Shown here one piece after another: positions 10,238 through 64,000 of a DNA stretch of 64,000 nt (within the stretch, counting starts at the first letter, position 1; every line of letters begins with the position of its first letter). The translations under genes and the position numbers were made by a program. The notes beneath the pieces were generated by a model that worked only from the letters and a program-made list of their open reading frames with translations, was not told the origin of the DNA and searched no databases. The stretch lies in UHGV virus genome UHGV-0038492. One strand, given 5' to 3'. Source of the stretch: a virus.

Positions 10238-10253
10238 CCGTTGAGAGTCTAAA

Positions 10254-10730: not shown

Positions 10731-11119
10731 TGAAACGTTTTATTACTCCATTTCTAATGTTACTTTCGTTTTCTGTATTAGCTGATTTTAAACCTTACGA
10801 TATCAGTCGTTACGAACCCGCTGTCCCTGGCGATAAACCGGTTGTGTTTAAAGCAGACGACCAACCCGTCACTGCGGTTCAAAACGATGAGTTTGCAGTG
10901 GTGAATTACGGCAAAACGGACTTATGTCCTGCGGGTGGATTTTATCTGGTGAACATCAAACGTCGGACTTACCAGTTTGTTGATCCGGGTAGCTGCTCTG
11001 CAATGGTTAAGGTGACGTTAGAAACCGTACCTTACACGAATAAAAACATTAATATACAACGTTTAACCTTTTATGCGGGTGATGAAATCACAGCACGTTA
11101 TCCGTTATACGGGTATTAG
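10730..11119 (+). CDS. secreted/periplasmic protein with N-terminal signal peptide
   Basis: MKRFITPFLMLLSFSVLA followed by a polar region. Confidence 0.55.
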   Translation: MKRFITPFLMLLSFSVLADFKPYDISRYEPAVPGDKPVVFKADDQPVTAVQNDEFAVVNYGKTDLCPAGGFYLVNIKRRTYQFVDPGSCSAMVKVTLETVPYTNKNINIQRLTFYAGDEITARYPLYGY

Positions 11120-11142
11120 TGATTAGCCCCCACGGAGTTCGT

Positions 11143-11781: not shown

Positions 11782-11793
11782 TAGTAACGGCGG

Positions 11794-11834
11794 GTAGAGA
11801 GAGCTTTCGGGCTCTCTCTACTTTTCTTTTTTTT
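11794..11834 (+). terminator. intrinsic terminator
   Basis: hairpin gtagagagagc-tttc-gggctctctctac plus T-run. Confidence 0.65.
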
Positions 11835-11864
11835 CCATTATCGACGGTCTTTATGGAGGTGACC

Positions 11865-12419
11865 ATGAAAGACTATAGAATTGCAATCATCGGGTCTCGA
11901 GAAACACCGGAAGACGTTATGCAGGAAATGTTAGACACGTTACGGGAAGGGTTTCGAATCTTACGAAAGAAAGGCTACACGATTACCACCCGTTCTGGCG
12001 GGTGTTATAAAGGCCCAGACCAGCTTCAGTTTATGATAGCACGTACCGAGGACGTTAAGAGCGTTTGTTATCTGCCGGATGAAAAGAAAATGTGGTTAGG
12101 GAAAATACACCCTAAGGTAGAGTTTCGTTATATCCCACAAGACGTTCAGTACCGAGCGATAGTTGCTTCACTTCACCCAAATCCAGATAAGCTCTCACCG
12201 ATTGCCTGGGCGCTACACGGCCGTAATCTGAATATCATCGCAGGTGACTGCTTAGACGAACCGGTAGACGCAGTCTATTACTTTAGCGACCACGACAAAC
12301 ACGGAAACGCAAAAGGTGGTACTGCGATGGGTGTAAAATACGCGAAGTCAATCGACGTTCCTTGTTACTACCATACCGTCGATCGGGATAAGTGGTTGGA
12401 AAGTCTTCGTTTATTATGA
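11865..12419 (+). CDS. SLOG/DprA-like Rossmann-fold protein (tentative)
   Basis: IAIIGSRE and TTRSGGCYKGPD resemble DprA/Smf-LOG family motifs; ATG at 11865 preceded by GGAGGTG. Confidence 0.35.
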   Translation: MKDYRIAIIGSRETPEDVMQEMLDTLREGFRILRKKGYTITTRSGGCYKGPDQLQFMIARTEDVKSVCYLPDEKKMWLGKIHPKVEFRYIPQDVQYRAIVASLHPNPDKLSPIAWALHGRNLNIIAGDCLDEPVDAVYYFSDHDKHGNAKGGTAMGVKYAKSIDVPCYYHTVDRDKWLESLRLL

Positions 12420-51278: not shown

Positions 51279-51315
51279 TCGCTAAGTCAACTACTATAAC
51301 AAAAAATAATAAGTT

Positions 51316-51352
51316 TACCTACCTCCGTAAAGGAGGTAGGTATTTTTTTTTG
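51316..51352. terminator. bidirectional terminator
   Basis: hairpin tacctacctcc-gtaa-aggaggtaggta flanked by an A-run and a T-run. Confidence 0.65.
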
Positions 51353-51359: not shown

Positions 51360-52031
51360 TTACAGCCCTTGCTCTAATGCAAACGCTTTAATTGAATCGT
51401 AATCACGGGCTTCGGCCCAAGCTCTGACTTCTTTTTTCTGTTCCGTCATTGCCTGATGCAGTTGCTGGTCGCGTTGCACAATAGCACCCAGCAGTGTTTT
51501 GCACTGCTCTAACGTAAACGGTTCGATACGGGTGTTGTTGGCCGTTAACCAATACGCTGGCGCGGTTTCTGACTGAATATAACGACTCAGTGCTACCTGT
51601 GACTTCTCATCTGCCTGGAAAGTGAAATCACCCACTTGAATCTCGGCATACCGCGCATCCTGATAACGGAATTCCAATGCGCTTAGGATTTTCTGAACAT
51701 CGGTAAAGATATACCGCACAGTGGAGCGTAAACCCGTACGAATCTCTTCCAGGTCAATTCCCAACGTGTCGTTAACAAAGTCTTTCGCTTTCTGTAACGT
51801 AAATCGTGCTTCGATTTCAGACATGTCGTAGTTACGCATTTGTTCCAATGCTTCACGATCGGACATCCCATCAATCAATTTATAGTGCAGTAACGCACAA
51901 AAACCCGTACGACCATGATCTTCGCTACCGATTTTTTCCATATAGTTACCATGGCGGTCAATCGGTAAATCGTGCTCAAAATAACGACGACGGATTTCTT
52001 CTTTCGTTAAGCCTTCACCAGTAGCAGACAT
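51360..52031 (-). CDS. hypothetical protein, last gene of the radical-SAM cluster operon
   Basis: 223-codon ORF co-oriented with the cluster. Confidence 0.55.
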   Translation of the reverse strand: MSATGEGLTKEEIRRRYFEHDLPIDRHGNYMEKIGSEDHGRTGFCALLHYKLIDGMSDREALEQMRNYDMSEIEARFTLQKAKDFVNDTLGIDLEEIRTGLRSTVRYIFTDVQKILSALEFRYQDARYAEIQVGDFTFQADEKSQVALSRYIQSETAPAYWLTANNTRIEPFTLEQCKTLLGAIVQRDQQLHQAMTEQKKEVRAWAEARDYDSIKAFALEQGL

Positions 52032-52579
52032 TCATCGTCTCCTTTAATCAATCCTAATTCGATTAACAGTTCAAAATCGATATGACGGAATCTTGTATCA
52101 AAATCCGATTCCCAATCGATGCGGATACCCTGGCACTCTTCTGATGTTAGCTCGGGAAAAATTACGGTATTAAATTTCTCACGCTCATCGTAAAACCCAT
52201 CAATCGGTGAGTTCGGGTTACGCGTTGCGAAAATAGTAATACCAGGGAAAGATAATGCTAACACAGTGATAGATTCTGCGCTGGGCTCACTTAAAGAGCG
52301 GCGTAGAAACGCAATTTTGTGGCGTGGGAAGTCCAATACGCGTTCTTCAAACCCTGGATTACGTTTTTCGATTTCCGCTACCGACAGGTCAGTAAGTTCG
52401 GTGCAATACATTGGGATGATTACAGTCACGCCGTGGCGAATCAGTAAACGTTTTACGTCATCGGTAAAATCTTCGCCGTTAATCATCACGTAACAACCGA
52501 ACAGCTTACTGTTTTCCAGAAACTTATCCAGAAGTCGAATTCTACGCTTCGTAATATTGTTGATCAGAATTGGTTTCAT
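52007..52579 (-). CDS. hypothetical protein in the radical-SAM cluster
   Basis: 190-codon ORF; AAGAGAAG upstream of ATG; start overlaps the upstream gene. Confidence 0.5.
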   Translation of the reverse strand: MKPILINNITKRRIRLLDKFLENSKLFGCYVMINGEDFTDDVKRLLIRHGVTVIIPMYCTELTDLSVAEIEKRNPGFEERVLDFPRHKIAFLRRSLSEPSAESITVLALSFPGITIFATRNPNSPIDGFYDEREKFNTVIFPELTSEECQGIRIDWESDFDTRFRHIDFELLIELGLIKGDDECLLLVKA

Positions 52580-53864
52580 CTTTGGCTTCTCTTAATAATT
52601 TTTCCTTTTGGGCGCGTTCACGAACACAGCGTGGGCAATAACACATACTCGTGTCGTGGAACGCTTTTGCTGACGTCGTACCCATCTTCTGTTTCCAGTA
52701 TTCCGCCACCATCAGTTTCGCTGTCGTCCACCCGCACTGACGTCGCTCAGCGTGATACGCTTTACGGTCTTCCAGTGTCCCTTCACCGTTTTCGTAAGAA
52801 GCCGCAGCGCAGCTACCACAAGCGTGTTTCATCGGACAACCTAAGCACGTCTCTGGATAGTTGGTATATTGTGTTTGAATCTCTTCTAACAATTTACCGT
52901 TGTCCAGGCTGACGAATTCCCGACCTACCAACTCAAATACCGCAGAACGTGATGTTACGGTTGACATAAAGCGATTGCAACCGAAGATCTTACGGTCAAA
53001 ACCTAAACACGTCATGTGTGTTAATGTCCCACAGAACGGACGTAAACGTTCTGGGTTCAACCGCACCGTGTCATTATAAAGTAATTGATCACGCCAGTTC
53101 GGTTCCCAAATCGTATCGAAATCCAACCCTTCTGGGATGATGTGCGATAAGATATTACGTGGGTTGGTGTGTAATCCTTTCTCGACCCAATAATCAATCA
53201 CATCCATCATCTGCAATGCAATTGAAGTAGCCATCCCACGTGGCATAATGTCTTCGAAGGTTACGTTGCCGGAGATAGTTCCGCCACCAGTAATATCAAT
53301 TAATGACTTCATTCCGGCAGCATAGTACGGTAACGTTTCTAACGTAAAGGTCGCCTTTACGCCAAGCTCTGCAATGCCAACCTCTTTTAAGTAGTTATAG
53401 CCTCGTACTGCGGCTTCGTAAGAACCCTGGCGCGTCGTTGTAAAGATACGATAACGGTCATGGGACTCAGGTAAGCCGTCAATTGAAACCCCAACCGAAA
53501 GTTTGTCTTTCCAACGCTCTACGATCTCACGGTTCAACGGGCGATCTAACAACGTCCCGTTTGTGGAAATACTAAACATAAACGGCCGATTATGTTCTTT
53601 ACACAACTGCTCGGCGGTTTCAAATGCAGCCAGCAGCAACTTAGGCTGCATGAACGGTTCACCACCGATAATGTCAATAATAACTTCAACATTCGGTTCG
53701 TTTTTATCGCGTTCAAAACAGGCGTGCAAGAAATCAACAATATCTGCCGCTTTGTTGTTACGCGGGTACTTACGTTCGTAACAATATTCGCAGTCCAGGT
53801 TACACGAAAGGTTCGTTACAATCTGATACGTTAGCTGCTTAGGGAATTCATTTACCTGACTCAT
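52542..53864 (-). CDS. radical SAM enzyme with SPASM-type C-terminal Cys-rich domain (anSME/peptide-maturase-like)
   Basis: CNLDCEYC (CxxxCxxC) at residues 21-28, GGEP SAM motif, C-terminal cysteines in CGTLTHMTC...GC and CLGCPMKHACGSC; GAGGGG upstream of ATG. Confidence 0.8.
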   Translation of the reverse strand: MSQVNEFPKQLTYQIVTNLSCNLDCEYCYERKYPRNNKAADIVDFLHACFERDKNEPNVEVIIDIIGGEPFMQPKLLLAAFETAEQLCKEHNRPFMFSISTNGTLLDRPLNREIVERWKDKLSVGVSIDGLPESHDRYRIFTTTRQGSYEAAVRGYNYLKEVGIAELGVKATFTLETLPYYAAGMKSLIDITGGGTISGNVTFEDIMPRGMATSIALQMMDVIDYWVEKGLHTNPRNILSHIIPEGLDFDTIWEPNWRDQLLYNDTVRLNPERLRPFCGTLTHMTCLGFDRKIFGCNRFMSTVTSRSAVFELVGREFVSLDNGKLLEEIQTQYTNYPETCLGCPMKHACGSCAAASYENGEGTLEDRKAYHAERRQCGWTTAKLMVAEYWKQKMGTTSAKAFHDTSMCYCPRCVRERAQKEKLLREAKDETNSDQQYYEA

Positions 53865-54771
53865 TTGCCGCCCCTCTATTACGACCTGCCATCACTACGC
53901 GACGAATATATTCGTACGCCTCTACACCGATAGAGAAGGCCAGTTGGTTACACCCGGATTCCAGTACGTTAGGTGCGTTCTGGAGCTGGTGCTCACCACC
54001 GTCTGCATTAATCCAGAGACTTTCGCTGCAAACGTTACACCCTTCTTCAAACACTTTACTTACCGTAAAACCACATTCACGACTGTTTACTACATTCAGT
54101 CGTTCAATGTTGTCCTGAACCCGATAGTAGCCGTAAATAAAGTTCATGACGTGGTCAGGTGATAAAGGCTTTGGCATTTTCGCATCTAAGAGTAACGTCA
54201 TTGCTCGGAAACCGTAATGGTAAATCGCGCTGTGCAGCTGAATAATATCTTCATGCCAACGTTTATCCCCCAAACGGTCCCGTGTCAAGACACCCCAAGT
54301 CTGGACATTATCCAGCTCGTAGATCGTTTCCAGTGCTTCGTAACAGCCTTCGTCAATAAAGCGCATAAATGGACGCTCAGACGACTTAAACCCATCGATG
54401 CTAACGTAGACATTGTCAAACTGTTTTAGCAACGGGAGATGCGATTTACGCATCTTTAAGCCATTGGTATACAACTGGTGTTTGAGTTCTGGACGAATCA
54501 CTTTTAATTCGTCAACAAACGCCTCAATTTTACGGGTTGCCAATAGTGGCTCACCACCCGTCCACTGAATTTCGGTAATGGTTGGATTAGCTTCCAGCGC
54601 TTCCAAAATTCGCTCACGTTGAAACTCTCGCGGAGAATCTTCACGATTCATGTAATAGGCTCCACCGCAGAAGCTACAATCCAGGTTACACTTGGACGTA
54701 GCGACTACGGACAATACGGTGGGTTTATCGTATAAACGATTCGATAACCTTGGTTCTGCATTGGTTGTCAT
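53848..54771 (-). CDS. radical SAM enzyme (paralog, shorter Cys-containing C-terminus)
   Basis: CNLDCSFC at residues 28-35, TGGEPLL motif, C-terminal CGF...CNVC. Confidence 0.75.
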   Translation of the reverse strand: MTTNAEPRLSNRLYDKPTVLSVVATSKCNLDCSFCGGAYYMNREDSPREFQRERILEALEANPTITEIQWTGGEPLLATRKIEAFVDELKVIRPELKHQLYTNGLKMRKSHLPLLKQFDNVYVSIDGFKSSERPFMRFIDEGCYEALETIYELDNVQTWGVLTRDRLGDKRWHEDIIQLHSAIYHYGFRAMTLLLDAKMPKPLSPDHVMNFIYGYYRVQDNIERLNVVNSRECGFTVSKVFEEGCNVCSESLWINADGGEHQLQNAPNVLESGCNQLAFSIGVEAYEYIRRVVMAGRNRGAANESGK

Positions 54772-54792: not shown

Positions 54793-55680
54793 TTAAATAT
54801 AATCAATGGCGAACAAAGGATCGTCGTCTACGTTAGCACCAGGGGTTAACAAGAATGGAGAGTTATACGCTTCCAAAATACGGTTAAGGTCTTTATAACG
54901 GACATTTAAACGTTCTAAATCCGCTAACGTTACGTTACGGTCCAACACCGCCGACACTGCTGCTTTCTCTTCGTCAGTTAACGTGACTTTCGTCATTAAG
55001 AAACTAACGAGTTTTGCCAGATCCGCTTCTGTTGACGGATGCTCGCCGATACGCGTTTGAATCAAATGCTGCATCCATGGTTTACGGATGCGTTTTGTGA
55101 TCTCATGTTCATCCGTTAGGGCAACCCACACGGAACGTTCACGATCCCACACGAACTTATAGCTATACGCCATTAAATCCGCTAAACAATTAATCCCTAA
55201 GGCTTCGTACCCTTCAATTTCAATATACGATTCCGTATCGAAATAGTTCTTCGTTTCTGGTGTTACCAGGGTAAAGAAATACGGGAACGAGCCCAAGTAA
55301 TCTGGTGACCACCAACGACGGGCAACCGGTTTTGCACCCATTTCTTCAAACGGGGTAAAGAACAATTCCATATCCACGGAGTTATTCAAAATCCCATCAC
55401 TAAAGAAATATTTACCTGCAACCAATTTACCACGCAACTCAGAGTCACCGGTAAATACCACTACACTTTCTGCCGTCAGATCACGAATCTTAAACGTATT
55501 TTCTACACGATAGTTTTTACGATCGGTAAAGAAACGTCCGCGCACTTTAGGCCATTCGCCTGGCAATTGCGTCAGCAGACGAACTTCATCTGCTAAGTGT
55601 GCACGTACGGAATCAGGGGAAGAAATGTGAAGTGGATGATTGAAAATCGTTTTGTACGCTAAATGTAAATCATTCTTCAT
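54793..55680 (-). CDS. hypothetical protein in the radical-SAM cluster (possible accessory/partner protein)
   Basis: ATG at 55680 after GGAG; the track start at 55692 is TTG. Confidence 0.55.
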   Translation of the reverse strand: MKNDLHLAYKTIFNHPLHISSPDSVRAHLADEVRLLTQLPGEWPKVRGRFFTDRKNYRVENTFKIRDLTAESVVVFTGDSELRGKLVAGKYFFSDGILNNSVDMELFFTPFEEMGAKPVARRWWSPDYLGSFPYFFTLVTPETKNYFDTESYIEIEGYEALGINCLADLMAYSYKFVWDRERSVWVALTDEHEITKRIRKPWMQHLIQTRIGEHPSTEADLAKLVSFLMTKVTLTDEEKAAVSAVLDRNVTLADLERLNVRYKDLNRILEAYNSPFLLTPGANVDDDPLFAIDYI

Positions 55681-55947
55681 TGATTGCTCCAACTATTTTA
55701 CGGTCAAACGGACGTTCAGGGTATAGAACCCACCCCGCCATTGTCTGCCGGTAACTTGAAACTCAGCAGTAAACCCATTCGATTTACTCGGTTGCTGGTT
55801 AATCGCCATACTACCGCCGGAATTCTTAAAACCTCTAAAGAGATAGAAGCAGAAGTCGCATTACCGATTGAGTCTATCTTAAAACTAGCCGCATCTGTAA
55901 AATTGACAGTAATACCATCACCCATCGCAACTCGGGGAAAGGCTTAC

Positions 55948-56154
55948 TTACCGCCCCCCTGCTCCCTTACTACAGCTACCGCTGCACGACCAGCTACATC
56001 CACCGTTACAGTTGTAGTGGCTTAAAGGTAAACCGGCAAGGTTATTGGTTGAAGACACGGTACCCTGGTTTGCAATATAGTTGTTTGCGTTAGCGGTCGT
56101 AATATACCCTTCCGCTGTTACTAAACGATCACGAAGGTTCTTAAGGCTAATCAC
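55948..56154 (-). CDS. Cys-rich peptide, short third copy (leader plus 4-Cys core)
   Basis: GTG start 2 nt after the upstream stop with GGGAGG SD; leader ISLKNLRDRL... and core CNGGCSWSCSGSC. Confidence 0.5.
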   Translation of the reverse strand: MISLKNLRDRLVTAEGYITTANANNYIANQGTVSSTNNLAGLPLSHYNCNGGCSWSCSGSCSKGAGGR

Positions 56155-56156: not shown

Positions 56157-56555
56157 TTACCTCCCAGAACACCCACCGGAACAAGAACCTGAACAGCCTG
56201 AAGAACAGTTCCCTGTACACGCGTTAGAACAGCTCCCCGTGCAACTTCCTGAACACCCACCGGAGCAGGTATTCGAACATCCGCTACAGCCCGCGCTACA
56301 ACCTGATACGCAGTTTGCAGAACACGAGGAACCACAACCACCGGATGCGTTTCCTGTGCAGCCACCAGAACAACTCGAACACGTCCAGCTACAACTACCT
56401 CCGCAGTCGTAGTGATTGCGGGCCTGTCCTCCGAATAAGTCTGCGTTGTTTGTCGCTTTCCCGCGAATATAGTTTTGTACTGCACCCGTATTCTTCAATG
56501 CAGTGCTGTCAATGTTATTTAACCGCGCTTGTAGCGCAGGTAATCCAATTGCCAT
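56157..56555 (-). CDS. Cys/Gly/Ser-rich peptide precursor (about 50-aa Cys-free leader, about 80-aa core with 20 Cys)
   Basis: AAGAGGTG upstream of ATG; core of repeated C-x2/3 units such as CSGGCSGSCTGSCSNAC. Confidence 0.65.
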   Translation of the reverse strand: MAIGLPALQARLNNIDSTALKNTGAVQNYIRGKATNNADLFGGQARNHYDCGGSCSWTCSSCSGGCTGNASGGCGSSCSANCVSGCSAGCSGCSNTCSGGCSGSCTGSCSNACTGNCSSGCSGSCSGGCSGR

Positions 56556-56565: not shown

Positions 56566-56961
56566 TTAGGTTGGGCCAGAACAGCCGCCAGAGCAGGCAC
56601 CAGAACAACCCGTAGAACAACGGCCTGAGCAAGCACCCCCACAGGTTCCGCTACAACCTGAACACCCACCTGAACACGTTGAGCTACATCCAGTACATTG
56701 GTTACCGCACGCAGAGGAGCAGCTGCCTACACACACAGACGTACAAGTACCCGAACAGCTCGTACAACCATGCGTACAGCCGTTTGAGCACGTCCAGCTA
56801 CAACTACCTCCGCAGTCTAACCGGTTTGGCGTCCAACCCGAAAATGTGTCGGCTGCATTATGTGCTTTCGACGCAACTTGCGGATCAACACGTGGGCCAG
56901 TTGCCATTTGGTTCTCTACGTTGGTGATTCGGTCACGTACGTTTTTAACACTGATCGCCAT
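56566..56961 (-). CDS. Cys/Gly/Ser-rich peptide precursor (leader plus core with 21 Cys)
   Basis: ATG at 56961 after TAAGGA; leader VKNVRDRITNVENQ...; core begins CGGSCSWTCS. Confidence 0.65.
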   Translation of the reverse strand: MAISVKNVRDRITNVENQMATGPRVDPQVASKAHNAADTFSGWTPNRLDCGGSCSWTCSNGCTHGCTSCSGTCTSVCVGSCSSACGNQCTGCSSTCSGGCSGCSGTCGGACSGRCSTGCSGACSGGCSGPT

Positions 56962-56982
56962 CACGTATCCTTAAAATAAAAA

Positions 56983-57020
56983 AGAATGGAGGACTACGTC
57001 CATAAACATAGTTCCTCCTG
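56983..57020 (-). terminator. hairpin plus T-run between the 399-aa fibre-like gene and the first precursor gene
   Basis: on the minus strand, arms ggaggaac/gtcctcc are followed by ttcttttttatttt. Confidence 0.4.
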
Positions 57021-57028
57021 TAATTAAA

Positions 57029-58228
57029 TTATTTCGTACCCGCTTCCGCCTGTACGTCATCACGAGACGTCAGGTTAGCGTTAACGTGTACTGCGGCCTG
57101 AACCACGCCACCGTATTTCTTGTGGAGATAACCGGTGTGTGGGTTATCTGCCGCAATGTGGTTTTGTAGGTTTTGGTTCGCTTGACTGATTGCGTTCGTG
57201 TTATTGTTAACCTGCTGTTTAAGCGCATCCAGGCTTTGTTGTACCTGATTGATTTTCTGATCGGTTTCTTGACCCTGTTGCTCTAACGCGTCAACACGCT
57301 GAATAACCTGATTCAGTTTTGTGTTTAAATCGTTGATGTTCTTTTGCAGCTGTAACACTAACGAGTTCAGGTTCGCTAACGCTAAGGCCATTTTCTGGTA
57401 GTTTTGAGCAACCACGTTAAGTTGGTCGTTCCACGCTTCCAGAGAGTTGACAACAGCGTCAATACGTTTACCTAAAGCTTCGTCCGCTTTCTTCAGTGCA
57501 TTGATTTCCGTAATCGTTGCATCGATAGCAGACTGAACGTCACGAATAAGCGCACGGATTTCAGTTTCTCTTAACCCGTTAACCTGGTGAATATCAAGAT
57601 GGTGAACGTTACCCGTTGCGTTGATGTGTGCATTTAAAGCATCTAAGAAGTCATTTTTCAGACTTTCTAAAATCGCTTTAATGTTCTCTAACTGTACCGC
57701 GTCACCAGAACTGATCGCATCTTTAATCCCCGCCAATACGGTGATGATATATTCAAAACCGTAGATGTCACCCACGTCTTTATACGTCGGTGCAGACGGG
57801 AATGTATCCGGTACGTTACGTAAGTCTTTAAACGCAATCGTACGGTTATCGAGGTTTAACTCAGCAATCGCCTGTTCGATAGCCACGATGTTCGCAGACT
57901 GTGGACCACCAACGACCTGCGCAGATACCGTAATATCTGTTGGAATCGCTGTGTTAGTGACCACCACCGCCATAACAATCTCGCGGTTTTTAGTCAGCTT
58001 TTCATAAGTCGGGTGTGCAAAAATCAACTCATAATCGGTACCACGTTCGTAGGTTGCTTCCGGTCGGTTAGCAACGCGTAAACGGAACGTGTCCGCAAAG
58101 AACGGACCATCAGGAAAAGCAAAAGCACGGTTTACTTTACCTGTACCTAACGTAATCTGACGCTCCACAGCGTTAGACGTTAGCGAGCCCGTTAAATCTA
58201 AAGGATATTGATAAACAATGGAGGCCAT
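57029..58228 (-). CDS. fibrous coiled-coil virion protein (fibre/whisker-like)
   Basis: ATG at 58228 after AAGGAGAG; long heptad-like Q/N/L-rich C-terminal half; N-terminal PDGPFF motif shared with the 1727-aa protein. Confidence 0.65.
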   Translation of the reverse strand: MASIVYQYPLDLTGSLTSNAVERQITLGTGKVNRAFAFPDGPFFADTFRLRVANRPEATYERGTDYELIFAHPTYEKLTKNREIVMAVVVTNTAIPTDITVSAQVVGGPQSANIVAIEQAIAELNLDNRTIAFKDLRNVPDTFPSAPTYKDVGDIYGFEYIITVLAGIKDAISSGDAVQLENIKAILESLKNDFLDALNAHINATGNVHHLDIHQVNGLRETEIRALIRDVQSAIDATITEINALKKADEALGKRIDAVVNSLEAWNDQLNVVAQNYQKMALALANLNSLVLQLQKNINDLNTKLNQVIQRVDALEQQGQETDQKINQVQQSLDALKQQVNNNTNAISQANQNLQNHIAADNPHTGYLHKKYGGVVQAAVHVNANLTSRDDVQAEAGTK

Positions 58229-58268
58229 GGCCACTCTCCTTTATTCGAGACGTCCTTGTCCCGAGTCA

Positions 58269-61200
58269 TTAAGATGTAAACATAAGATTGAACTGGAGTT
58301 TGTCGATATCGCGAGTTTCTGCTGGATTCACACCATCGTACGCGGTCGCTACGTAAACCGTTAGCGTGCCGTTAGCGTAAGACGATTTCACCGGTGGGTT
58401 AGTTCCAGTCTGACCATCTCGCACAATGAGTGTAGGTTCACTTGGGAGATTATCAAACTGACCCTTGACCGCTTTATACACCAAACCAGATTGCGCAGAC
58501 AGTTCAGTGTCCGTAAAGACAAAGAACGGTGTGTCGATATCAGCCTGTTTAATCGTGGTACCGGTCTCGACGTCAATCAACTGTACCGCCCCAAACTTCG
58601 TACGATAACTTTCATACTCGTTCTTCGGAATAACGAACGTGACGTGAACGCGAACCTCCTCGGCAGGTTTAAACCCAGCGTGCTCTTTTTCCAGGTACTG
58701 GTTGGCGGTTAACGTGACGTCCTGCTCTTTCATCGTACCACCGGCCTGGTTTAATGCATAGCGAGCTTCAACAATACCGGTTGGCGCAGCAAGTCGCAGT
58801 TTCAGAGCACGATTTGCCGTTCCTGGATTACCTGGCACCTGAACGCGCAAACTCAATGCTAAGTAAACATTCGTTCCGGTAGTCGGTTTCGTATACGCAC
58901 CAATCCATTTCATGTTCGCAGACGCTGCCTGCGTGTTCTCAGAAGCAGTGGCTGTCGCAATGTTAGCAGCTACCGCTTTCTGCCAGAATTGGTCAGCGCA
59001 GTTCTCATACGCTACCCTGGCCACGCTCTTATAACCCGAATACGTTTCCTGAATTGGTAACTTAGGACGCGTCGTAATACCAGACAATGAACCCCATTTT
59101 TGACCGTCAACATACCCTTCGCCCTTCGACGCAGACGCCGTAGGCGCTTTAACGGGTTTGTTAACCAGTGTTAATAGAGGACCCGTCTTTCTGTCAAACG
59201 CTGCTGCAACATCATGTTGGTCGATAATTGCTGCGTGGTCTTCCAGTTCTTTCACACGACCCAAACGTTTTACTTTGTCGATGTTGATACCAGTAATACG
59301 GCTGGAATCGGTGGTTACTGACCCGACGAACAGTCTTGTTGAAGTGTCAGCTAACTGCTCCAAACCGATACGGTATTGCGCAGTAGAACCTGACACCTCA
59401 GCGTGCACGTAGAACGTCTGGTTAGCGTGGTTAGACGGGAATTCGCTGCTTAAATCCACAGACCACGTTGGGAGTGTGTAACTGCTGCTACCGAAGTCTA
59501 ACTTGACTTCTTCTGTCAAATACAGAATCCAGCCTTCTGCTGTCTCCACACCGGCAATAATAACAGCCTGACCTCCGGTTGAGAACCTCGTGTCGTTAAC
59601 GAACTCTGCGGCTGTATACGCGTTACCTGAACAGAAAACACGGTCAGCTTTAGAGTAAATCAACGCCATCTTGTCCCAATTACCCGCACCCATATAGCAC
59701 CCAGATTCTGGGTTATGTGCAGGGGCCATCTGTCGTAACTGTGACTTACCAGGAACGCGAGACCAACCTGAACCTGGGTCGTAGGTATACTTCGCGGCGT
59801 AACCTAGTGCATTTAAGTCCCCGATATTTCGGATAGTTAACGTATAAGGTAGCCAAATACCGAAGTTTACACCGTCGGCAGAAGCAAAAATTGGCTGACC
59901 GACACGTCGTGTTTTATTACCCGCTTCTTCCCTCAGAGACTGATAACTTAAACCATAATCGAGGTCTAAGAACCAGTCCACCAACTTAAAGGTGGCTGAG
60001 TTGAAACGTAAGTAGCCGTTCTCTTTAGATGGACTCACCATGAAGTAATAGATGTCAAGAATTCGACGTCCGTTACTTGAGGTTTTCATGCACGAAACTT
60101 GCAACAAGTCAAATTCGCACACGGTGTTGATACCCAACATCCAAAGAGCAAACAGTGCATTACCGGTTTGATGTGCAGCACTGATGCGCTCATTCGCGTA
60201 ACCATTTGCTTGACCAGATGGCGCACCGTCAACGATCATCCGAATCATTTTCTGACGATCGGCTTCTTCTAGCGTTAAGCGTTCGGAAGACAATGCGAAA
60301 TTACCGTAGATGTTACGATACGGGAACGTTTCTGCTTTGGTCAAATACCAACCGTTTAGCTGCCCGTGACGCTCCTCAGGAGTCATGCACGCAGCCATAC
60401 AGCTAAGCTGCTCGTAGAGCGTTGGATCGACTTCACGACGGTTGTTGTTCGGACCGTATCCGCTATAACCCGGAACATCGTAAGGTTTGTTCGGATCAAC
60501 TTCTACTTCGATGGTGTAACGGTTACGTGGGTTAGACAACCACACTTTATTCGAACCGCCTATTCCGACAGGATGGGAAAGACCGATGGTGTAAATAGAA
60601 CCGCGACCTTTATCCCAGGTAAACGTTCCTTCGCCCGAGGTGTTGTTTGGGTTATCGTAACGCAGATAATCGAAAAGCTCTTTGCCTTGTGTACCCTTAA
60701 TAGAAACATTAGGCATTTGGTCCGCATCGTTAATCTGCCAGCAGGAAAGCATCATTCCTGTACCGTTAGGTTTTGCATACGTCGCGAAACAACGGTTGTT
60801 TGCCTGACCACCACCCCACTTACGACTGGTTTCTACAGTTGAACCATCCGCGAACGAGAGTGCAGTAGCATCAGCCTTGATGGGGAAGCGTTCGCGGCCT
60901 TCTAACGTAACCTTGCCCGTCAACGTATCGATTGTAAAACTTGTTGCCCATTGACGAAAGTTAATTTGTGAGCTGTCGGCCGCTGCAAACCACACAGTAG
61001 GCATATGGTTCACACGAATCACGCTTTCGCGTACCGCACACGCGTGGTTACATTCTGGCCCGTGAACAAAGTTGTGGCCAATTGTCCATTTAGCCCGTGC
61101 TTCCGGCGTCAAATACGTAAAGAATTGACCCGTCTGCGACTCTTCGGTTTTCTGGCCAATACGTAGGCAGAGGTTATCTCCGAATTGTCCCATTTCACCG

Positions 61201-63452
61201 GTTAGTGTTACACGTTCAAATTCTAACGTAGTGTTAGTAGACAAATCGTCTTTACGTAAGCGCCATGCTGCAACAGCGTAAGCAGAGTTATTTACCGTGG
61301 AGCGGAGAAGATAAACATAGTCCTCAACCAACACAACGTCATCGGCTTCTGGCCACGGATTCCAGGTTTGTTCTGTAGTACCGCTGGGGTTACCGTTACG
61401 GTACATAGGCATCGTGACACGACATACCACCGTGTGTTTAGTGTGGTCCATCGAACCATTAAACAGCACCAAATAACGATTATTGTCAGAACCCAGGCAA
61501 ATAATCGCTTCCTGACCACCGATCAATATCGCTTTTAGGGTCACTCCAGGATATTTACTCATCCCGGCAGGGTGATATTTCACTGAGGTCTGCTGCGGAT
61601 TTACAAACGCGTTTGAGGTGTTAATGTCCGCGTAGCCGTAATAAATGGCTTCTGTACCCGGCACGCCATTAGAACCGTTACGTAGCGAATAAACCTTACC
61701 CTGCTGATACCCAACAACCCCTTTCTGGTAAGACTGGTTTTTGGTATAGCCCGCGTAGTTACCTAACGCTGGGATAGGTAAGAAGTTCTTATTACCGAAC
61801 TTCGCACCGCCTACCGTCCATGCCGGTAAGATGGTATTCAGTTTATCAGAGACTTTCTTAATCTCTTTTGCGAACAACCACCCTTGACGTGACGTGACAG
61901 CTTTATCATTAGTGGTGTCAATTGCATCCCACAGCTGTAAGACACCGTCAACCGTTGCACTACCAATTGGGACGTTATCCAAGTCAGCAGTGGTGTGGGT
62001 GTGCGTTTTCAAACTCTTGTTTTTCAACACGTTCGTTAACGCTTTTGTCACAGGCTTAGCACTCGGTATGGTGTTATCCATCTTATCGATACCGAAATCG
62101 GTTTTCGTTAAGGTTAACACCATCTTGTCGCCCGTCTTAACAAACCCTTTACCGTTAACGGTATAGTCATCGTCAACGTACAGGTCCAAACGGTCTTTTA
62201 GTTCGGTTACGGCTTTCTGGGAGATGGCAGTACCTAACGCCGCAGACGTAGAGATGTTCGTAATCGAGAACAACCCATAAACTGATTCGGACGCTGTGGG
62301 AATATTCGCGTTTAACGTGACCGGGTTAGTCTGTTTTGCAGTACCGTACGGTTTTACGGTGTCTGACGCTTTGAAATACGCGTTTGCTTCAAGCAACGTT
62401 ACTGACGTCAGATACATGTTCACCATTTCTGGCGTGACCAGGTACACGGAGTTATAAACCGGTGCTAATACATCCTGTTCTGACCCCGAGTGAACCCAAA
62501 GCGTATTCAGACCCGCACTAAACTCCACCGCTAAACCTGATTCGTTATTGTCCTGGTCTGCTTTAATCACTAACGGTTGCGGTGAGGTAATTAACCACTT
62601 ATCACCACGAATACTGATGATGTGACCACCTGACGTTTTAAACGTTAATTCATTACCGTTCGTGGTACCCCATCGACCGTAAACAGTACCGAGGGCTTCA
62701 CCCATTAACTGATCAACGTCGGATTGCTCGATACCCGCTGAACCCATCAGCGTAGCCAATTCGTCAATCGTCAACCCAAATGCTTTTGTGGCGTCAACAG
62801 CGCGTCCTAATACGGGGAGAGCAGCAACGTCGTCAGTGGTATAGTGATGCGCGTTAGGGTTACGGTGATGCTGGTATAATTCTTCGTCGAAAACCTTTTT
62901 CCCGTTCTCGTAAATCAGGTTAGTGACTTCGCTAAACGCAGCATCCAACTCCGTAGAACGCTTAATGATTTTCTTGCGAATGTCTTCTAACGCCTTAACA
63001 ACCTCGTCCCTCAGAATCGCTTCTTCTAAGTTAGCAGGCGGGTCGATAGGCTGAATAACCGGCGCATACGCCATTAGTTCAGACCAGTCCACGTTACGTG
63101 GGTCTTTCAGGTCAGTACGAACTAAGAACTTCCCGATTTCAGATTGTGGTACACGGTATTGTCGTGCTACCCCTAAAATCTCATATTCGATTTCTGTTGC
63201 GGTAAGCAACATAAACCCGCCATAAATCTGATCTTGCTCAGCTTCGGCGAGTTCTTTAAAGTAATAGCCTAAATAGTAGTCCAACCCCTCAATCAGAGTA
63301 CGACGTCCGTTAGGCGCGGTATCGTCGGCTACTGTGAGTTTTAATCCGATACGATAAAAAGGTCCTTCAGGCGGAATGACCACGTTAAATCGGTTAGGGT
63401 ACGTCGCTGTGCTTAACGTACCGTTAAACTGCGCCGCGTCTTCTCTCGGCAT
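58269..63452 (-). CDS. very large structural protein (1727 aa), probably tail fibre/host-specificity protein
   Basis: AGGAG upstream of ATG; N-terminal PPEGPFY motif parallels the 399-aa protein. Confidence 0.7.
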   Translation of the reverse strand: MPREDAAQFNGTLSTATYPNRFNVVIPPEGPFYRIGLKLTVADDTAPNGRRTLIEGLDYYLGYYFKELAEAEQDQIYGGFMLLTATEIEYEILGVARQYRVPQSEIGKFLVRTDLKDPRNVDWSELMAYAPVIQPIDPPANLEEAILRDEVVKALEDIRKKIIKRSTELDAAFSEVTNLIYENGKKVFDEELYQHHRNPNAHHYTTDDVAALPVLGRAVDATKAFGLTIDELATLMGSAGIEQSDVDQLMGEALGTVYGRWGTTNGNELTFKTSGGHIISIRGDKWLITSPQPLVIKADQDNNESGLAVEFSAGLNTLWVHSGSEQDVLAPVYNSVYLVTPEMVNMYLTSVTLLEANAYFKASDTVKPYGTAKQTNPVTLNANIPTASESVYGLFSITNISTSAALGTAISQKAVTELKDRLDLYVDDDYTVNGKGFVKTGDKMVLTLTKTDFGIDKMDNTIPSAKPVTKALTNVLKNKSLKTHTHTTADLDNVPIGSATVDGVLQLWDAIDTTNDKAVTSRQGWLFAKEIKKVSDKLNTILPAWTVGGAKFGNKNFLPIPALGNYAGYTKNQSYQKGVVGYQQGKVYSLRNGSNGVPGTEAIYYGYADINTSNAFVNPQQTSVKYHPAGMSKYPGVTLKAILIGGQEAIICLGSDNNRYLVLFNGSMDHTKHTVVCRVTMPMYRNGNPSGTTEQTWNPWPEADDVVLVEDYVYLLRSTVNNSAYAVAAWRLRKDDLSTNTTLEFERVTLTGEMGQFGDNLCLRIGQKTEESQTGQFFTYLTPEARAKWTIGHNFVHGPECNHACAVRESVIRVNHMPTVWFAAADSSQINFRQWATSFTIDTLTGKVTLEGRERFPIKADATALSFADGSTVETSRKWGGGQANNRCFATYAKPNGTGMMLSCWQINDADQMPNVSIKGTQGKELFDYLRYDNPNNTSGEGTFTWDKGRGSIYTIGLSHPVGIGGSNKVWLSNPRNRYTIEVEVDPNKPYDVPGYSGYGPNNNRREVDPTLYEQLSCMAACMTPEERHGQLNGWYLTKAETFPYRNIYGNFALSSERLTLEEADRQKMIRMIVDGAPSGQANGYANERISAAHQTGNALFALWMLGINTVCEFDLLQVSCMKTSSNGRRILDIYYFMVSPSKENGYLRFNSATFKLVDWFLDLDYGLSYQSLREEAGNKTRRVGQPIFASADGVNFGIWLPYTLTIRNIGDLNALGYAAKYTYDPGSGWSRVPGKSQLRQMAPAHNPESGCYMGAGNWDKMALIYSKADRVFCSGNAYTAAEFVNDTRFSTGGQAVIIAGVETAEGWILYLTEEVKLDFGSSSYTLPTWSVDLSSEFPSNHANQTFYVHAEVSGSTAQYRIGLEQLADTSTRLFVGSVTTDSSRITGINIDKVKRLGRVKELEDHAAIIDQHDVAAAFDRKTGPLLTLVNKPVKAPTASASKGEGYVDGQKWGSLSGITTRPKLPIQETYSGYKSVARVAYENCADQFWQKAVAANIATATASENTQAASANMKWIGAYTKPTTGTNVYLALSLRVQVPGNPGTANRALKLRLAAPTGIVEARYALNQAGGTMKEQDVTLTANQYLEKEHAGFKPAEEVRVHVTFVIPKNEYESYRTKFGAVQLIDVETGTTIKQADIDTPFFVFTDTELSAQSGLVYKAVKGQFDNLPSEPTLIVRDGQTGTNPPVKSSYANGTLTVYVATAYDGVNPAETRDIDKLQFNLMFTS

Positions 63453-63483: not shown

Positions 63484-63515
63484 TACCCCTCCCCGTTACA
63501 GGGAGGGGTTACCTA
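63484..63515 (-). terminator. intrinsic terminator upstream of the 1727-aa gene
   Basis: on the minus strand, hairpin cccctccctg-taac-ggggagggg followed by a T-rich tract. Confidence 0.5.
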
Positions 63516-63546
63516 CGGACACACAACTGCCCGCAGGCAGCCTGTC

Positions 63547-64000
63547 CTAAGTACGATCCCCTAACTGCTTCCCGTTAAGTTCTCGTTTCAGTACAGAAAG
63601 TATCCATTTCCACGCTTTACTCGTGATATGGTACGGATTGCGTTTCTCCATTAAGAACTGCTTTTCACCGCTACGCAGTTCGAAGCTCTGCGCATTAAGA
63701 AAGTCCTGACGATAGACTTTCTCGTCAAAGACTTCCAGTGCACAGGTAAAGTTAAGTTCGTAACCTTCGGGATTATCACCTGGCGGTTCCAAGACAATAT
63801 AGATGTCCTGACCTACACGTAAATCCCTTGGGGTGATGGTAATCGCTTTACCCACATCAGCGCTGGTCGACAGAGCAAACTCCGCACTATCGGTGGACGC
63901 TAAGAATGGGTCTTTCCCTGCGTCGCCGATAATCACTTTACCAGGCCAGTTACACTTCACAGTTCCTGACACTTTTGCAATTCGATATTGTTGTTTCTCA
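63547..64000 (-). CDS. hypothetical protein, 5'-partial (frame open to the window end)
   Basis: no in-frame stop between 63972 and 64000 on the minus strand. Confidence 0.5.
   Translation of the reverse strand, partial: EKQQYRIAKVSGTVKCNWPGKVIIGDAGKDPFLASTDSAEFALSTSADVGKAITITPRDLRVGQDIYIVLEPPGDNPEGYELNFTCALEVFDEKVYRQDFLNAQSFELRSGEKQFLMEKRNPYHITSKAWKWILSVLKRELNGKQLGDRT

Follow-up and report, generated by a model that had tools for sequence, protein, structure and literature searches.

The locus studied here raises the question of why three Cys-rich repeat proteins are encoded directly 3' of two fibre-like genes, and whether they are precursors of a released peptide or parts of the fibre itself. 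The window is a 64,000-nucleotide stretch of the virus genome UHGV-0038492. It belongs to a new relative of the giant Salmonella/Erwinia-type jumbo phage SPN3US; the region described here has a DNA identity of approximately 70% to SPN3US and relatives and is fully syntenic with gp161-gp170. All elements described in the initial annotation were recovered in place on the minus strand, where the genes of the 51.3-64 kb interval all run the same way and make up one tail-fibre module of the SPN3US-like type. The genes 3' of a conserved hairpin encode, in order, three CxxxC-repeat proteins (C1, C2 and C3), a phrog_8030 protein, two radical SAM proteins, a phrog_7988 protein and a DUF4376 protein. 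The features are listed below in the direction of transcription.

63547..64000, minus strand: C-terminal end of the gp169 homologue (phrog_8078 positions 1252-1389, E=3e-10; SPN3US synteny)
63485..63509, minus strand: terminator-like hairpin (11 bp, 8 GC) with T-rich tail, between the gp169 and gp168 homologues
58269..63452, minus strand: 1727-aa protein, SPN3US gp168 homologue (phrog_7449, E=0; synteny)
63003..63452, minus strand: shared N-terminal domain of the 1727-aa protein, residues 1-150 (phrog_2163 positions 32-160, E=1.5e-19)
57029..58228, minus strand: 399-aa protein, SPN3US gp167 homologue, 'virion structural protein 20' (phrog_2163, E=1e-102)
57779..58228, minus strand: shared N-terminal domain of the 399-aa protein, residues 1-150 (phrog_2163 positions 5-154, E=5.8e-58)
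57134..57691, minus strand: coiled-coil region of the 399-aa protein, residues ~180-365 (heptad contrast, low Pro/Gly)
56988..57018, minus strand: conserved hairpin, 13 bp with one bulge, invariant TATG in the loop at 57004..57001
56973..56986, minus strand: U-run UUCUUUUUUAUUUU 3' of the hairpin (sequence read)
56566..56961, minus strand: C1, 131 aa, 21 Cys (phrog_6085, E=1.7e-40)
56157..56555, minus strand: C2, 132 aa, 20 Cys (phrog_6085, E=1.6e-39)
55948..56154, minus strand: C3, 68-aa short paralogue, 4 Cys (phrog_6085, E=4e-24)
54793..55680, minus strand: phrog_8030 protein, 295 aa, SPN3US gp165 homologue
53848..54771, minus strand: short radical SAM protein, 307 aa, CNLDCSFC motif, gp164 homologue (PF04055, E=6e-14)
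52542..53864, minus strand: long radical SAM/SPASM maturase, 440 aa, gp163 homologue (TIGR04115, 1.4e-33; PapB, 2.2e-33)
52007..52579, minus strand: phrog_7988 protein, 190 aa, gp162 homologue (cassette member in jumbo phages and L006)
51360..52031, minus strand: DUF4376 protein, 223 aa, gp161 homologue, last gene of the block (PF14301, E=1.3e-11)
51316..51342, minus strand: strong hairpin (11 bp) between an A-run and a T-run (sequence read)

The gp169 homologue is a paralog family C baseplate/fibre protein whose gene extends beyond the window. SPN3US virions contain gp167-gp170, a tailless mutant lacks gp168-170, and gp161-166 are missing from the virion list (PMC5694885).

The fibre-like proteins and their N-terminal domain

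Of the two fibre-like proteins, the larger corresponds to gp168, an essential virion protein and baseplate/tail-fibre candidate, and the smaller to gp167, which was detected by mass spectrometry in SPN3US virions (PMC5694885). Read from GTG 58234, the smaller open reading frame encodes 401 aa; read from ATG 58228, where its orthologues start, it encodes 399. The initial annotation had suggested that both proteins begin with a common attachment segment, which reads PPEGPFY...GLDYYL in the 1727-aa protein and FPDGPFF...GTDYEL in the 399-aa protein. Direct comparison of the two yielded a pairwise BLASTP E-value of only 0.12 and a non-significant shallow hhalign; the first 150 residues of both proteins match a common region of phrog_2163 (approximately positions 5-160). 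Because this family is also matched by the N-termini of SPN3US gp169 (3e-19) and gp170 (5e-14), profile comparison identifies the motif as the core of a real domain of ~150 residues, larger than the segment first proposed and common to the four gp167-gp170 homologues. Such a domain fits a common attachment module of baseplate/fibre proteins (PMC5694885). The 399-aa and 1727-aa proteins are the gp167 and gp168 orthologues of the SPN3US gp167-gp170 / phiKZ gp131-type paralogue set, and their N-terminal domain is the one common to that set. Published paralog family C comprises gp168-170 only, and its discussion includes neither the sharing of this domain by gp167 nor the adjoining Cys-rich genes (PMC5694885).

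In an alignment of nine orthologues, the 399-aa protein starts with the shared N-terminal domain, continues as a coiled-coil shaft and ends in 35 conserved C-terminal residues; a distal globular domain is lacking. The shaft has 1 Pro and 4 Gly among its 185 residues and reaches a heptad contrast of 0.6-0.74 at residues ~240-360, which bears out its description as a long coiled coil. Sub-threshold matches of this region include tropomyosin and SMC, and also three trimeric coiled coils, those of reovirus sigma-1, of HA2 and of spike HR1.

The Cys-rich proteins and their putative maturation genes

The three Cys-rich genes are not of a single class. In C1, a helical N-terminal part of 49 residues precedes a CxxxC-repeat core of 82; in C2, an N-terminal part of 50 residues precedes a core of equal length; C3 has the same N-terminal part and a CNGGCSWSCSGSC nucleus, after which it ends. 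All three N-terminal segments (~49 residues) close with a conserved N-x-x-x-L/F-x-G-x(4-5)-Y-x-C-G-G-x-C-S-W junction and contain no recognisable fibre domain. The C1 and C2 cores are composed almost entirely of Cys, Gly, Ser and Thr with no Asp or Glu, and AF2 returned no fold for the Cys-rich core (pLDDT ~40). Across 16 jumbo loci, with identity down to ~36%, the Cys counts are 21 for C1, 20-23 for C2 and 2-4 for C3; C3 is kept at 68-69 aa in jumbo relatives, apart from the 58 aa called in L027, and occurs in the distant L006/L007 cassette too. Comparison of C1 with the closest relative gave 0, 1 and 27 differing sites at codon positions 1, 2 and 3 (26 synonymous codon changes and 1 non-synonymous), and the C1-C3 reading frame is under strong purifying selection. 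The published SPN3US proteomics is silent on C1-C3 because their genes are missing or in the wrong frame in the SPN3US annotation.

Among the closest known systems is the CXXX-repeat system (TIGR04114 and TIGR04115; PF27846), in which a repeat of small residues with Cys at every fourth position likewise adjoins a radical SAM/SPASM enzyme. With 20.7 bits, C2 is above the cutoff of 20 set for the TIGR04114 repeat model, and homologues carry PF27846 tSAM_targ_Cxxx_rpt. The 440-aa enzyme has a CX3CX2C motif and SPASM-like C-terminal Cys motifs read from its sequence. Its best family match is TIGR04115, yet it is no member of that equivalog because it scores 117 bits against a cutoff of 350 (340 for PapB). 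It also matches SCIFF, sactipeptide and QhpD-type models, and its nearest solved structure is CteB (5wgg, 1.3e-13). These similarities indicate an enzyme of the peptide-maturase type, related to the CXXX-repeat, PapB and CteB maturases. An RRE was looked for and not found: the radical SAM motif begins at residue 21, and no PqqD-like match was obtained for the phrog_8030 model. The phages differ from the bacterial CXXX-repeat system in adding a second radical SAM protein, the phrog_8030 protein and fibre-type N-terminal modules, and in having no Tat signal. We found no paper on the chemistry or function of the CXXX-repeat family in the literature searched.

PapB (freyrasin) and CteB (SCIFF), both matched by the 440-aa enzyme, are SPASM radical SAM enzymes that form Cys-to-carbon thioethers in Cys-rich peptides. 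PapB joins Cys to Asp within CxxxD motifs, whereas the present cores have neither Asp nor Glu, so that a chemistry of the PapB type should not be taken for granted. In CteB an RRE occupies the N-terminus, and the match of the 440-aa enzyme begins only at CteB residue 105. Both known enzymes yield small peptides rather than domains of structural proteins. QhpD (model TIGR03906, matched at 6.5e-17) offers a precedent, being a SPASM radical SAM enzyme that introduces several intrachain Cys thioethers into a functional protein subunit, QhpC, which is no released natural product. QhpC is a subunit of a periplasmic enzyme (quinohemoprotein amine dehydrogenase) carrying Cys-Asp/Glu links, and it differs from the proteins described here in having neither repeats nor a virion context.

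The phrog_8030 protein is a signature accessory of the phage cassettes. The terminal DUF4376 protein weakly matches (E=2e-4) the 'tail protein' phrog_2837 and the 'tail fiber protein' phrog_1807, and a DUF4376 protein adjoining the L038 cassette matches phrog_2837 at 1.8e-40; DUF4376 is a tail-associated family.

The cassette in other phages and its probable role

The combination of a Cys-rich protein, a phrog_8030-like protein and two radical SAM enzymes recurs in L006/L007 (BLASTP 1e-29, 7e-25 and 1.6e-150) and is also found in L003, L017, L034, L036, L038 and L039 (8030-like protein, HMM E-values from 2e-16 to 3e-6), with both radical SAM enzymes fused into one 668-aa protein in L003. In T7-like loci (L003, L015 and L017) the cassette lies directly 3' of a gene for either the T7 tail-fibre N-terminal adaptor or a full fibre, in lambda-like loci (L016 and L036) it follows gpJ, and in P2-like loci (L034 and L037) it has the baseplate J/I genes on one side and the sheath gene on the other. 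Of the 11 phage contexts examined, 10 have the cassette within a tail-fibre locus. Moreover, the Cys-rich domain forms the C-terminus of several larger proteins: a 384-aa fibre of L037 (PF12571 Phage_tail_fib; phrog_327, 1e-54; phrog_6202, 2e-46), a 401-aa protein of L034 with collagen-like and fibre repeats, a 302-aa protein of L036 with HxHDxRYYTE fibre repeats, and 430-560-aa fibres with collagen, coiled-coil or KAPL repeats (P0222, P0243, P0234 and P0322). N-terminal parts of P0019 (1e-7) and P0006 (1.5e-4) match the tail-fibre family phrog_5073, and the P0019 N-terminal module is also present in an adjoining collagen-like fibre gene. An association of Cys-ladder peptides with fibres, originally offered as speculation, thus receives stronger support than expected, from tail-fibre loci of T7-, lambda- and P2-like phages and prophages and from fibre C-termini.

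Because related phages carry it at the ends of real tail-fibre proteins, we consider the Cys-rich domain to be probably a radical-SAM-matured tail-fibre tip rather than a free peptide product, an arrangement for which we found no published description in the literature searched. The homologues of gp170, gp169, gp168 and gp167 would each dock via their common N-terminal domain. The gp167 homologue would supply this docking domain, a probably trimeric shaft and its short C-terminus, and C1, C2 and C3 would provide its missing distal part through a docking that we infer. As family resemblance suggests, the two radical SAM enzymes would modify the C1 and C2 cores in the cytoplasm, assisted by the phrog_8030 and phrog_7988 proteins. 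Most likely, thioether cross-links would form a ladder, intrachain or possibly interchain, and convert the disordered Gly/Ser/Cys chain to a rod or knob that is rigid and resists proteases; the modification could also be other than thioethers. The enzymes and accessory proteins would stay outside the virion, in a genomic place that is that of fibre chaperones in simpler phages. As in P2 H/G, lambda Stf/Tfa and T4 gp37/gp38, the maturation genes lie directly 3' of the fibre gene, and in P2-like elements they stand between baseplate and sheath genes as the fibre/chaperone pairs do. The absence of gp161-166 from the SPN3US list likewise parallels fibre chaperones. Unlike those pairs, the helper genes here encode radical SAM enzymes and a phrog_8030 protein, and therefore covalent chemistry beyond folding assistance is implied.

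The term precursor had implied a released RiPP, in which C1-C3 are leader-plus-core precursors, the core is cross-linked by radical SAM chemistry, the leader is cut by a host protease, and the peptide is freed at lysis with an antimicrobial, signalling or anti-defence role, adjacency to fibre genes being an operon convenience. The layout of C1-C3, their RiPP-type maturases, the TIGR04114 match of C2 and the predicted disorder of the unmodified core agree with this account, as does the L006/L007 cassette, which has no obvious tail genes adjoining. The bacterial homologues, moreover, are small and exported: the bacterial version L018, and it only, has Tat signals and TatA/TatC. We nevertheless regard a released peptide as unlikely. 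In many phages, fibre proteins of 300-560 aa carry the domain as a fusion, the cassette resides in tail-fibre loci in all but one of the phage contexts examined, and neither Cys counts nor core length change from genus to genus, whereas RiPP cores usually vary. No peptidase, leader peptidases included, and no exporter were detectable in the phage cassettes examined, and neither an immunity gene nor an RRE was found; in the sense of a released RiPP, the term precursor is only half apt, the enzymes being of the RiPP type. Since the bacterial relatives are small and Tat-exported, the ancestral role may have been that of a secreted peptide. Less probable still is that the domain serves as a C-terminal assembly device, an intra- or intermolecular chaperone or a metal- or Fe-S-binding nucleation domain, which trimerises fibre shafts and is then removed or non-functional, with the radical SAM enzymes assisting or acting on another substrate. 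C-terminal placement on fibre proteins, the chaperone slot (P2 G / Tfa) of the cassette, a C3 reduced to junction and nucleus, and a Cys density at which metals could bind would all suit such a device. Against it, the protease domain of intramolecular chaperones (Peptidase_S74) was not detected, regularly spaced CxxxC units with Gly/Ser/Thr characterise a predicted radical SAM target family and are unlike known metal sites, and two dedicated radical SAM enzymes co-vary with the domain in every context examined.

The hairpin preceding the Cys-rich genes

An attenuator-like hairpin with a T-run had been described before the first precursor gene. Both elements (56973-57018) do lie between the stop codon of the 399-aa gene and C1, followed by a Shine-Dalgarno sequence AAGGA at 56972..56968 and the ATG of C1 at 56961; the attenuator role is less secure. 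The hairpin has a folding energy of -20.9 kcal/mol (z=-2.3, with 2 of 200 shuffles equally stable) and was not picked up by a simple terminator scan. A stem of 9-17 bp occupies the same place in all 21 distinct orthologous sequences, with letters that vary by lineage while pairing is kept, so that a chance hairpin is unlikely. TATG is found in the loop of every one of the 21. The U-run is present in most relatives and lost in the most distant lineage (L025/L030/L033), which retains hairpin and TATG. Given this loss and the constant loop, the attenuator reading is unproven and an independent late start site within the hairpin is possible.

Late promoters of the phiKZ non-virion RNA polymerase are defined by a TATG motif with G as +1, read on the opened non-template strand (PMC4666361, PMC12809450), and SPN3US-type phages encode such polymerases (PMC5694885). 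Together with the persistence of TATG through changing stems and through loss of the U-run, this makes it conceivable, at somewhat less than an even chance, that the hairpin is no attenuator but a late promoter or start element, in which the inverted repeat presents single-stranded TATG and the Cys-rich cassette has its own late transcript. However, TATG is just 4 nt and its conservation in the loop may have other causes, TATG-in-hairpin arrangements across the rest of the window show no enrichment (23 observed against 43 expected), the gp169/gp168 hairpin lacks TATG, and the TATG rule is that of phiKZ and may not be that of SPN3US. Within the proposed fibre-tip scheme, the hairpin after gp167 would be a conserved regulatory element, placed where the abundant structural genes give way to the tip/maturation genes. 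It may terminate transcription in part, as an intrinsic terminator, or be a site of late promotion, or do both. The hairpin is no specific mark of the Cys-rich boundary, since the gp169 and gp168 homologues are separated by a similar one. At the other end of the block, the hairpin at 51316..51342 looks like a bidirectional terminator that closes the minus-strand block at a convergent junction.

Genomic setting and the two fibre proteins

The 11 kb around the finding share about 70% DNA identity with Salmonella phage SPN3US and its Erwinia, Escherichia and Proteus relatives (genera Seoulvirus, Erskinevirus and Machinavirus), and the gene order is that of SPN3US gp161-gp170 in complete synteny. 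The second of the three Cys-rich proteins, C2, is 97% identical to its counterpart on L019, a 225-kb IMG/VR contig, and an identical radical SAM protein is encoded on a Logan contig. Because of this identity, synteny and the L019 and Logan matches, the window is assigned from its sequence to an uncultivated member of the SPN3US-type jumbo-phage group. The minus strand from 64000 to 51360 is a single co-directional, tightly packed block with several start/stop codon overlaps, most likely a fibre module. The hairpin that closes the block looks like a bidirectional terminator.

Main features of the minus-strand block
63452..58269, minus: gp168 orthologue, 1727 aa (phrog_7449, E=0)
58228..57029, minus: gp167 orthologue, 399 aa from the ATG used by orthologues (phrog_2163, 1e-102)
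56961..56566, minus: C1, 131 aa, 21 Cys
56555..56157, minus: C2, 132 aa, 20 Cys
56154..55948, minus: C3, 68 aa, 4 Cys
51300-51351, convergent junction with plus-strand genes: closing hairpin, 11 bp, GC-rich, TACCTACCTCC/GGAGGTAGGTA, A9 run on one side and T-run on the other

The gp168 protein of SPN3US is essential, present in virions at low copy and a baseplate/tail-fibre candidate, gp167 has been detected in virions by mass spectrometry, and the virion list is without gp161-gp166 (PMC5694885). With regard to C1-C3 the SPN3US virion proteomics is silent, because in the annotation used their ORFs were absent or in the wrong frame. The initial annotation had pointed to an N-terminal motif shared by the 1727-aa and 399-aa proteins. 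This motif is real and is the conserved core of a larger domain of about 150 residues, for a homology search showed that the first ~150 residues of both proteins match the same region of the phrog_2163 profile (PHROG; E=1.5e-19 and 5.8e-58, respectively). SPN3US gp169 and gp170 match it with their N-termini as well (3.1e-19 and 5.3e-14), and these so belong to the same domain family. A six-way alignment leaves the Phe of GPF, the G-x-D-Y of the second motif and two prolines invariant. Direct BLASTP of the two fibre proteins against each other gave a weak match (E=0.12) and hhalign of shallow orthologue alignments a probability of 2%, neither of which establishes N-terminal homology. Pfam and PDB sequence searches returned no match for the 1727-aa protein and coiled-coil noise only for the 399-aa protein. 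In the C-terminal third of the 1727-aa protein (gene 58269-63452), residues ~1278-1530 form a domain common with the gp170-type family (phrog_7557 8e-37, phrog_3573 4e-43); these paralogues therefore have more than the N-terminal domain in common.

Beyond its N-terminal domain the 399-aa protein is, as had been proposed, a coiled coil, with 1 Pro and 4 Gly in 185 residues (~180-365) and strong heptad contrast. Weak similarities link it to trimeric coiled coils, among them those of reovirus sigma-1 and HA2, and it ends in a highly conserved 35-residue tail without a distal globular domain. The gp167 homologue thus looks like a tip-less fibre made of an attachment domain and a trimeric shaft, and it resembles the short adaptor-plus-coiled-coil proteins that precede Cys-rich genes in T7-like loci.

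The Cys-rich proteins and the radical SAM enzymes

C1, C2 and C3 all belong to phrog_6085. Their N-terminal parts of about 49 residues match nothing but this family, are without a recognisable fibre domain and are helical at moderate confidence in AF2 models. Each of these segments ends in a conserved junction, N-x-x-x-(L/F)-x-G-x(4-5)-(Y/L)-x-C-G-G-x-C-S-W-x-C-S. C3 ends immediately past it, and C1 and C2 have cores of exactly 82 residues each that are more than 85% Cys/Gly/Ser/Thr, the Cys spacers being 3 residues long in 17 of 20 intervals of C1 and 16 of 19 of C2. An AF2 model of C2 built with 22 homologues (pLDDT 49.5) includes the N-terminal helix and leaves the core unmodelled. The trio is kept in all jumbo relatives examined, with 21, 20-23 and 2-4 Cys, down to about 36% identity. 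Comparison of C1 with L019 gives 26 synonymous codon changes and 1 non-synonymous change, which indicates strong purifying selection on the frame.

These genes are often missing or wrong in GenBank/RefSeq records (SPN3US, L001/L002, 143191-144222; L009 6580-6915; L010 6196-6915; L012 1793-2415; L014 1452-2567). SPN3US gp166 is an out-of-frame 111-aa Val/Ala/Arg-rich ORF over C2, with C1 and C3 unannotated; the correct SPN3US ORFs of C1, C2 and C3 lie at 143830-144222, 143413-143817 and 143191-143397 on the minus strand. In Parshik, pEa_SNUABM_29 and pSal-SNUABM-04 the Cys-rich genes are covered by ORFs of the opposite strand, and STsAS has nothing annotated there. As so many records lack or mis-annotate them, existing proteomic data could be re-searched at once. 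Each 82-residue core holds a single Lys/Arg and would for this reason be almost invisible to tryptic mass spectrometry; the tryptic peptides of C2 from the window sequence include LNNIDSTALK and ATNNADLFGGQAR.

Two observations concern the layout of these genes. C3 is followed by a 267-nt spacer before the phrog_8030 gene (55681-55947, minus), the same interval being 10-22 nt in SPN3US, Stratton and Parshik. The spacer had no match in the phage database, and a 38-aa ORF within it (55809..55693, MAINQQPSKSNGFTAEFQVTGRQWRGGFYTLNVRLTVK) is 82% conserved in the close relative L019 only. In a distant large phage (L006, 10001-10962, and L007, 10001-10582) a short form of 69 aa, which stops just past CGGSCSW, comes after long Cys-rich genes, so that the pairing of long and short forms predates the SPN3US group.

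The genes after C1-C3 encode, in order, a phrog_8030 protein (295 aa), a radical SAM protein (307 aa), a radical SAM/SPASM protein (440 aa), a phrog_7988 protein (190 aa) and a DUF4376 protein that weakly matches PHROG families with tail or tail-fibre annotations. The phrog_8030 protein gives a confident model with no structural relative. The best family of the 440-aa enzyme is TIGR04115, the CXXX-repeat-target maturases (116.9 bits, 1.4e-33, far under the 350-bit cutoff); the ranthipeptide maturase PapB scores 115.9 bits (2.2e-33, also far under its 340-bit cutoff), and the nearest solved structure is CteB, a SCIFF thioether synthase. The enzyme matches PF04055 and PF13353. Its CX3CX2C motif is CNLDCEYC at residues 21-28, and near its C-terminus it carries a SPASM-type Cys cluster (C...G....C and CLGCPMKHACGSC). 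On the target side, C2 scores 20.7 bits against the TIGR04114 repeat model, barely above the 20-bit cutoff, and C1 has no match at E<=0.01 (C3 was outside that search). PF27846, absent from the Pfam copy used, occurs on homologues as precomputed, mostly weak matches. C1-C3 lie 2-3 genes upstream of the 440-aa enzyme in the same operon, and such pairing recurs in 11 other contexts.

The initial annotation had viewed the Cys-rich genes as RiPP-like precursors. At the level of enzyme type this is well founded, given the kinship to TIGR04115, PapB and CteB and the C2 score over the TIGR04114 cutoff; the enzyme/target pairing is of a known, bioinformatically defined kind. PapB-type ranthipeptides have a Cys-X3-Asp/Glu acceptor in the core. 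The cores of C1, C2 and C3 contain zero Asp or Glu and hence are without such motifs. No RiPP recognition element (PqqD-like) was found in the maturase or partner protein. The cassette of the window had no Pfam or PHROG match to a leader peptidase or exporter, nor was one found in 10 other phage cassettes covered by precomputed Pfam listings or PHROG scans. The literature searched contained no description of the chemistry or biology of the CXXX-repeat family, and none of a radical SAM and phage tail-fibre system. On a T7-like contig (L003, 11330-13336) a single 668-aa polypeptide unites the short and the long radical SAM protein, and the homologues include a second 668-aa representative (P0180); from the L003 fusion it is argued that the two radical SAM proteins work together.

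Distribution of the module and a proposed role at the fibre tip

Related cassettes were retrieved with C2, the phrog_8030 protein and the long radical SAM protein as queries. The core module, a Cys-rich protein with a phrog_8030-like protein and two radical SAM proteins, is present in very different genomes, and the phrog_8030-like protein was confirmed by HMM or PHROG in seven of the listed cassettes.

Positions of related cassettes
L003, L015, L017 (T7-like podoviruses): immediately downstream of a complete fibre gene or of the T7 tail-fibre N-terminal adaptor gene
L016, L036 (lambda-like elements): immediately downstream of gpJ
L034, L037 (P2-like elements): flanked by baseplate J/I and the sheath, in the position that belongs to fibre gene H and chaperone G
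L039 (140-kb phage): downstream of a baseplate wedge gene
L038 (170-kb phage): close to the gene of a DUF4376 tail protein
L006/L007 (large phage): neighbourhood without obvious tail genes

The Cys-rich domain often forms the C-terminal end of a protein that is recognisably a fibre. A fibre domain stands in the same polypeptide in the homologues L037, L034, L036, P0222, P0243 and P0019, as distinct from C1-C3 of the window. The Campylobacter prophage protein (L037, 384 aa) has a P2 H-type N-terminus (PF12571; phrog_327 1e-54; phrog_6202 2e-46) and ends ...CNGCSGSCSGSCSSGCTACSGCSGSC..., L034 encodes a 401-aa fibre with collagen-like repeats followed by the same junction and core, and a Deferribacter prophage fibre has HxHDxRYYTE repeats ahead of the Cys-rich domain. 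The tail-fibre family phrog_5073 is matched both by P0019, in its N-terminal module, and by the adjacent collagen-like fibre gene. Further representatives of 430-560 aa combine the domain with collagen, Ala/Gln-rich coiled coils or KAPL-type fibre repeats. Proteins of 1400-1800 aa such as P0193 have a C-terminal Cys-rich region of about 600 residues that is profile-matched in 6-12 stretches, and are either giant fibres or unrelated Cys-rich proteins.

We propose that C1, C2 and C3 supply the distal part of the gp167 fibre as separate chains, and we infer that the three chains would cap the trimeric shaft. The radical SAM pair, aided by the phrog_8030 and phrog_7988 proteins, would turn the unstructured cores into a covalently cross-linked ladder; the closest enzyme families suggest, by analogy, that thioethers are the likeliest chemistry. 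SPN3US virions lack the enzymes, whose genes occupy the place usual for chaperones. Taken as a whole, a fibre module with a tip matured by radical SAM enzymes, for which we infer the chemistry, the virion residence and the docking partner, is in our judgement reasonably probable, and it agrees with everything that was tested. The main rival is a released RiPP, with which the enzyme type and the export genes near the bacterial locus L018 would fit. Against it speak the fusions to fibres, the positions of the loci, the constant length of the core and the lack of leader-processing genes, and we regard it as unlikely. We give still less weight to a chaperone-like or metal-binding assembly device.

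A broader formulation of the fibre-tip model is plausible, although we would stop a little short of even confidence in it. Under this formulation the proteins represent a widespread type of distal domain of phage tail fibres that has so far gone undescribed, a CxxxC ladder of Gly, Ser, Thr and Cys which becomes structured only after covalent cross-linking by RiPP-type radical SAM enzymes; these enzymes and a novel-fold protein would hold the genomic slot of the fibre chaperone, the product would be the first radical-SAM-modified virion protein, and in the jumbo phages the tip would be split into C1, C2 and C3 capping gp167. Three points are new relative to the literature searched: the enzyme/target pair lies consistently in tail-fibre loci, it is fused to fibre proteins in four tail morphotypes, and SPN3US-type phages carry a form split into three genes. 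If the model is true, it joins RiPP/radical SAM enzymology with phage receptor-binding proteins, fields so far unconnected, and adds radical chemistry to chaperones, proteases and autocatalytic isopeptide links as a means of virion protein maturation. It would also give the uncharacterised CXXX-repeat radical SAM family a first biological role and explain a conserved, essential-looking, unannotated block beside the fibre genes of SPN3US-type therapeutic phages. A fibre tip that is protease-proof through heavy cross-linking would be of interest for engineering stable phage or tailocin receptor-binding modules.

The bacterial locus L018 (ENA ERZ14210020 NODE_145, 5521-12000) encodes two CXXX-repeat peptides with twin-arginine signals, one radical SAM gene and TatA/TatC, with no phrog_8030-like gene. 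It is the only locus with export genes nearby; the phage cassettes are without a detectable peptidase or exporter.

The hairpin between the gp167 homologue and C1

Elements between the gp167 homologue and C1
57031..57029, minus: stop codon of the gp167 homologue
57018..56988, minus: stem-loop, 13 bp, fold -20.9 kcal/mol, z=-2.3
56986..56973, minus: U-run UUCUUUUUUAUUUU
56972..56968, minus: Shine-Dalgarno AAGGA
56961, minus: C1 start codon ATG

A hairpin and T-run had been described ahead of the first Cys-rich gene, and both are present, a stable GC-containing stem standing directly 5' of the U-run in the window. For this predicted structure the fold energy from one sequence is modest evidence and comparative conservation is strong evidence. 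Conservation was scored by per-sequence folding with rank-wise pair tabulation; this superseded MAFFT with RNAalifold, in which the stems were misaligned and 6 pairs only were reported. A stem of 9-17 bp occurs at the exact same position in the window and in all 24 orthologous loci (21 distinct hairpin sequences in all), with stem sequences that vary by lineage and several Watson-Crick pair types at most stem ranks. The U-run is found in most relatives, while the most divergent lineage (L025, L030 and L033) has 2 T in 12 nt and retains the hairpin.

All 21 distinct sequences have TATG in the loop (57001-57004, minus, in the window and the orthologous positions in the 24 loci) as the stems change. 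[quoted passage not shown] The motif is short (4 nt), and its promoter role here is that of a candidate, a live possibility. TATG-loop hairpins as a general element of the window were ruled out, since they are not enriched (23 observed against 43±6 expected), and no over-representation of TTTATGG was found. A sigma-70 promoter scan, which yielded fewer sites than in shuffles, was set aside because phages of the phiKZ type rely on RNA polymerases of their own for transcription. The 5' arm of the stem also resembles a Shine-Dalgarno sequence, with AGGAGG in the window, and ATG codons occur within the loop. A mini-ORF starting in the loop (MFMDVVLHSFLF) was rejected as a leader peptide, its length and sequence varying among relatives.

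The initial annotation had read the hairpin as an attenuator through which transcription from the structural genes might be modulated. The stable stem with its U-run in the window agrees with this reading, but the U-run missing from L025, L030 and L033, the invariant loop TATG and a similar hairpin between the gp169 and gp168 homologues complicate it. An independent promoter for the Cys-rich genes, the outcome named beforehand as contrary to it, is likewise a live possibility. Two inverted repeats follow each other between the gp169 and gp168 homologues (63485-63545, minus), and a T-rich tail adjoins the second. This intergenic hairpin and tail (63509..63485) are comparable to those between gp167 and C1, and such hairpins are therefore general in the operon rather than a mark of the Cys-rich boundary.
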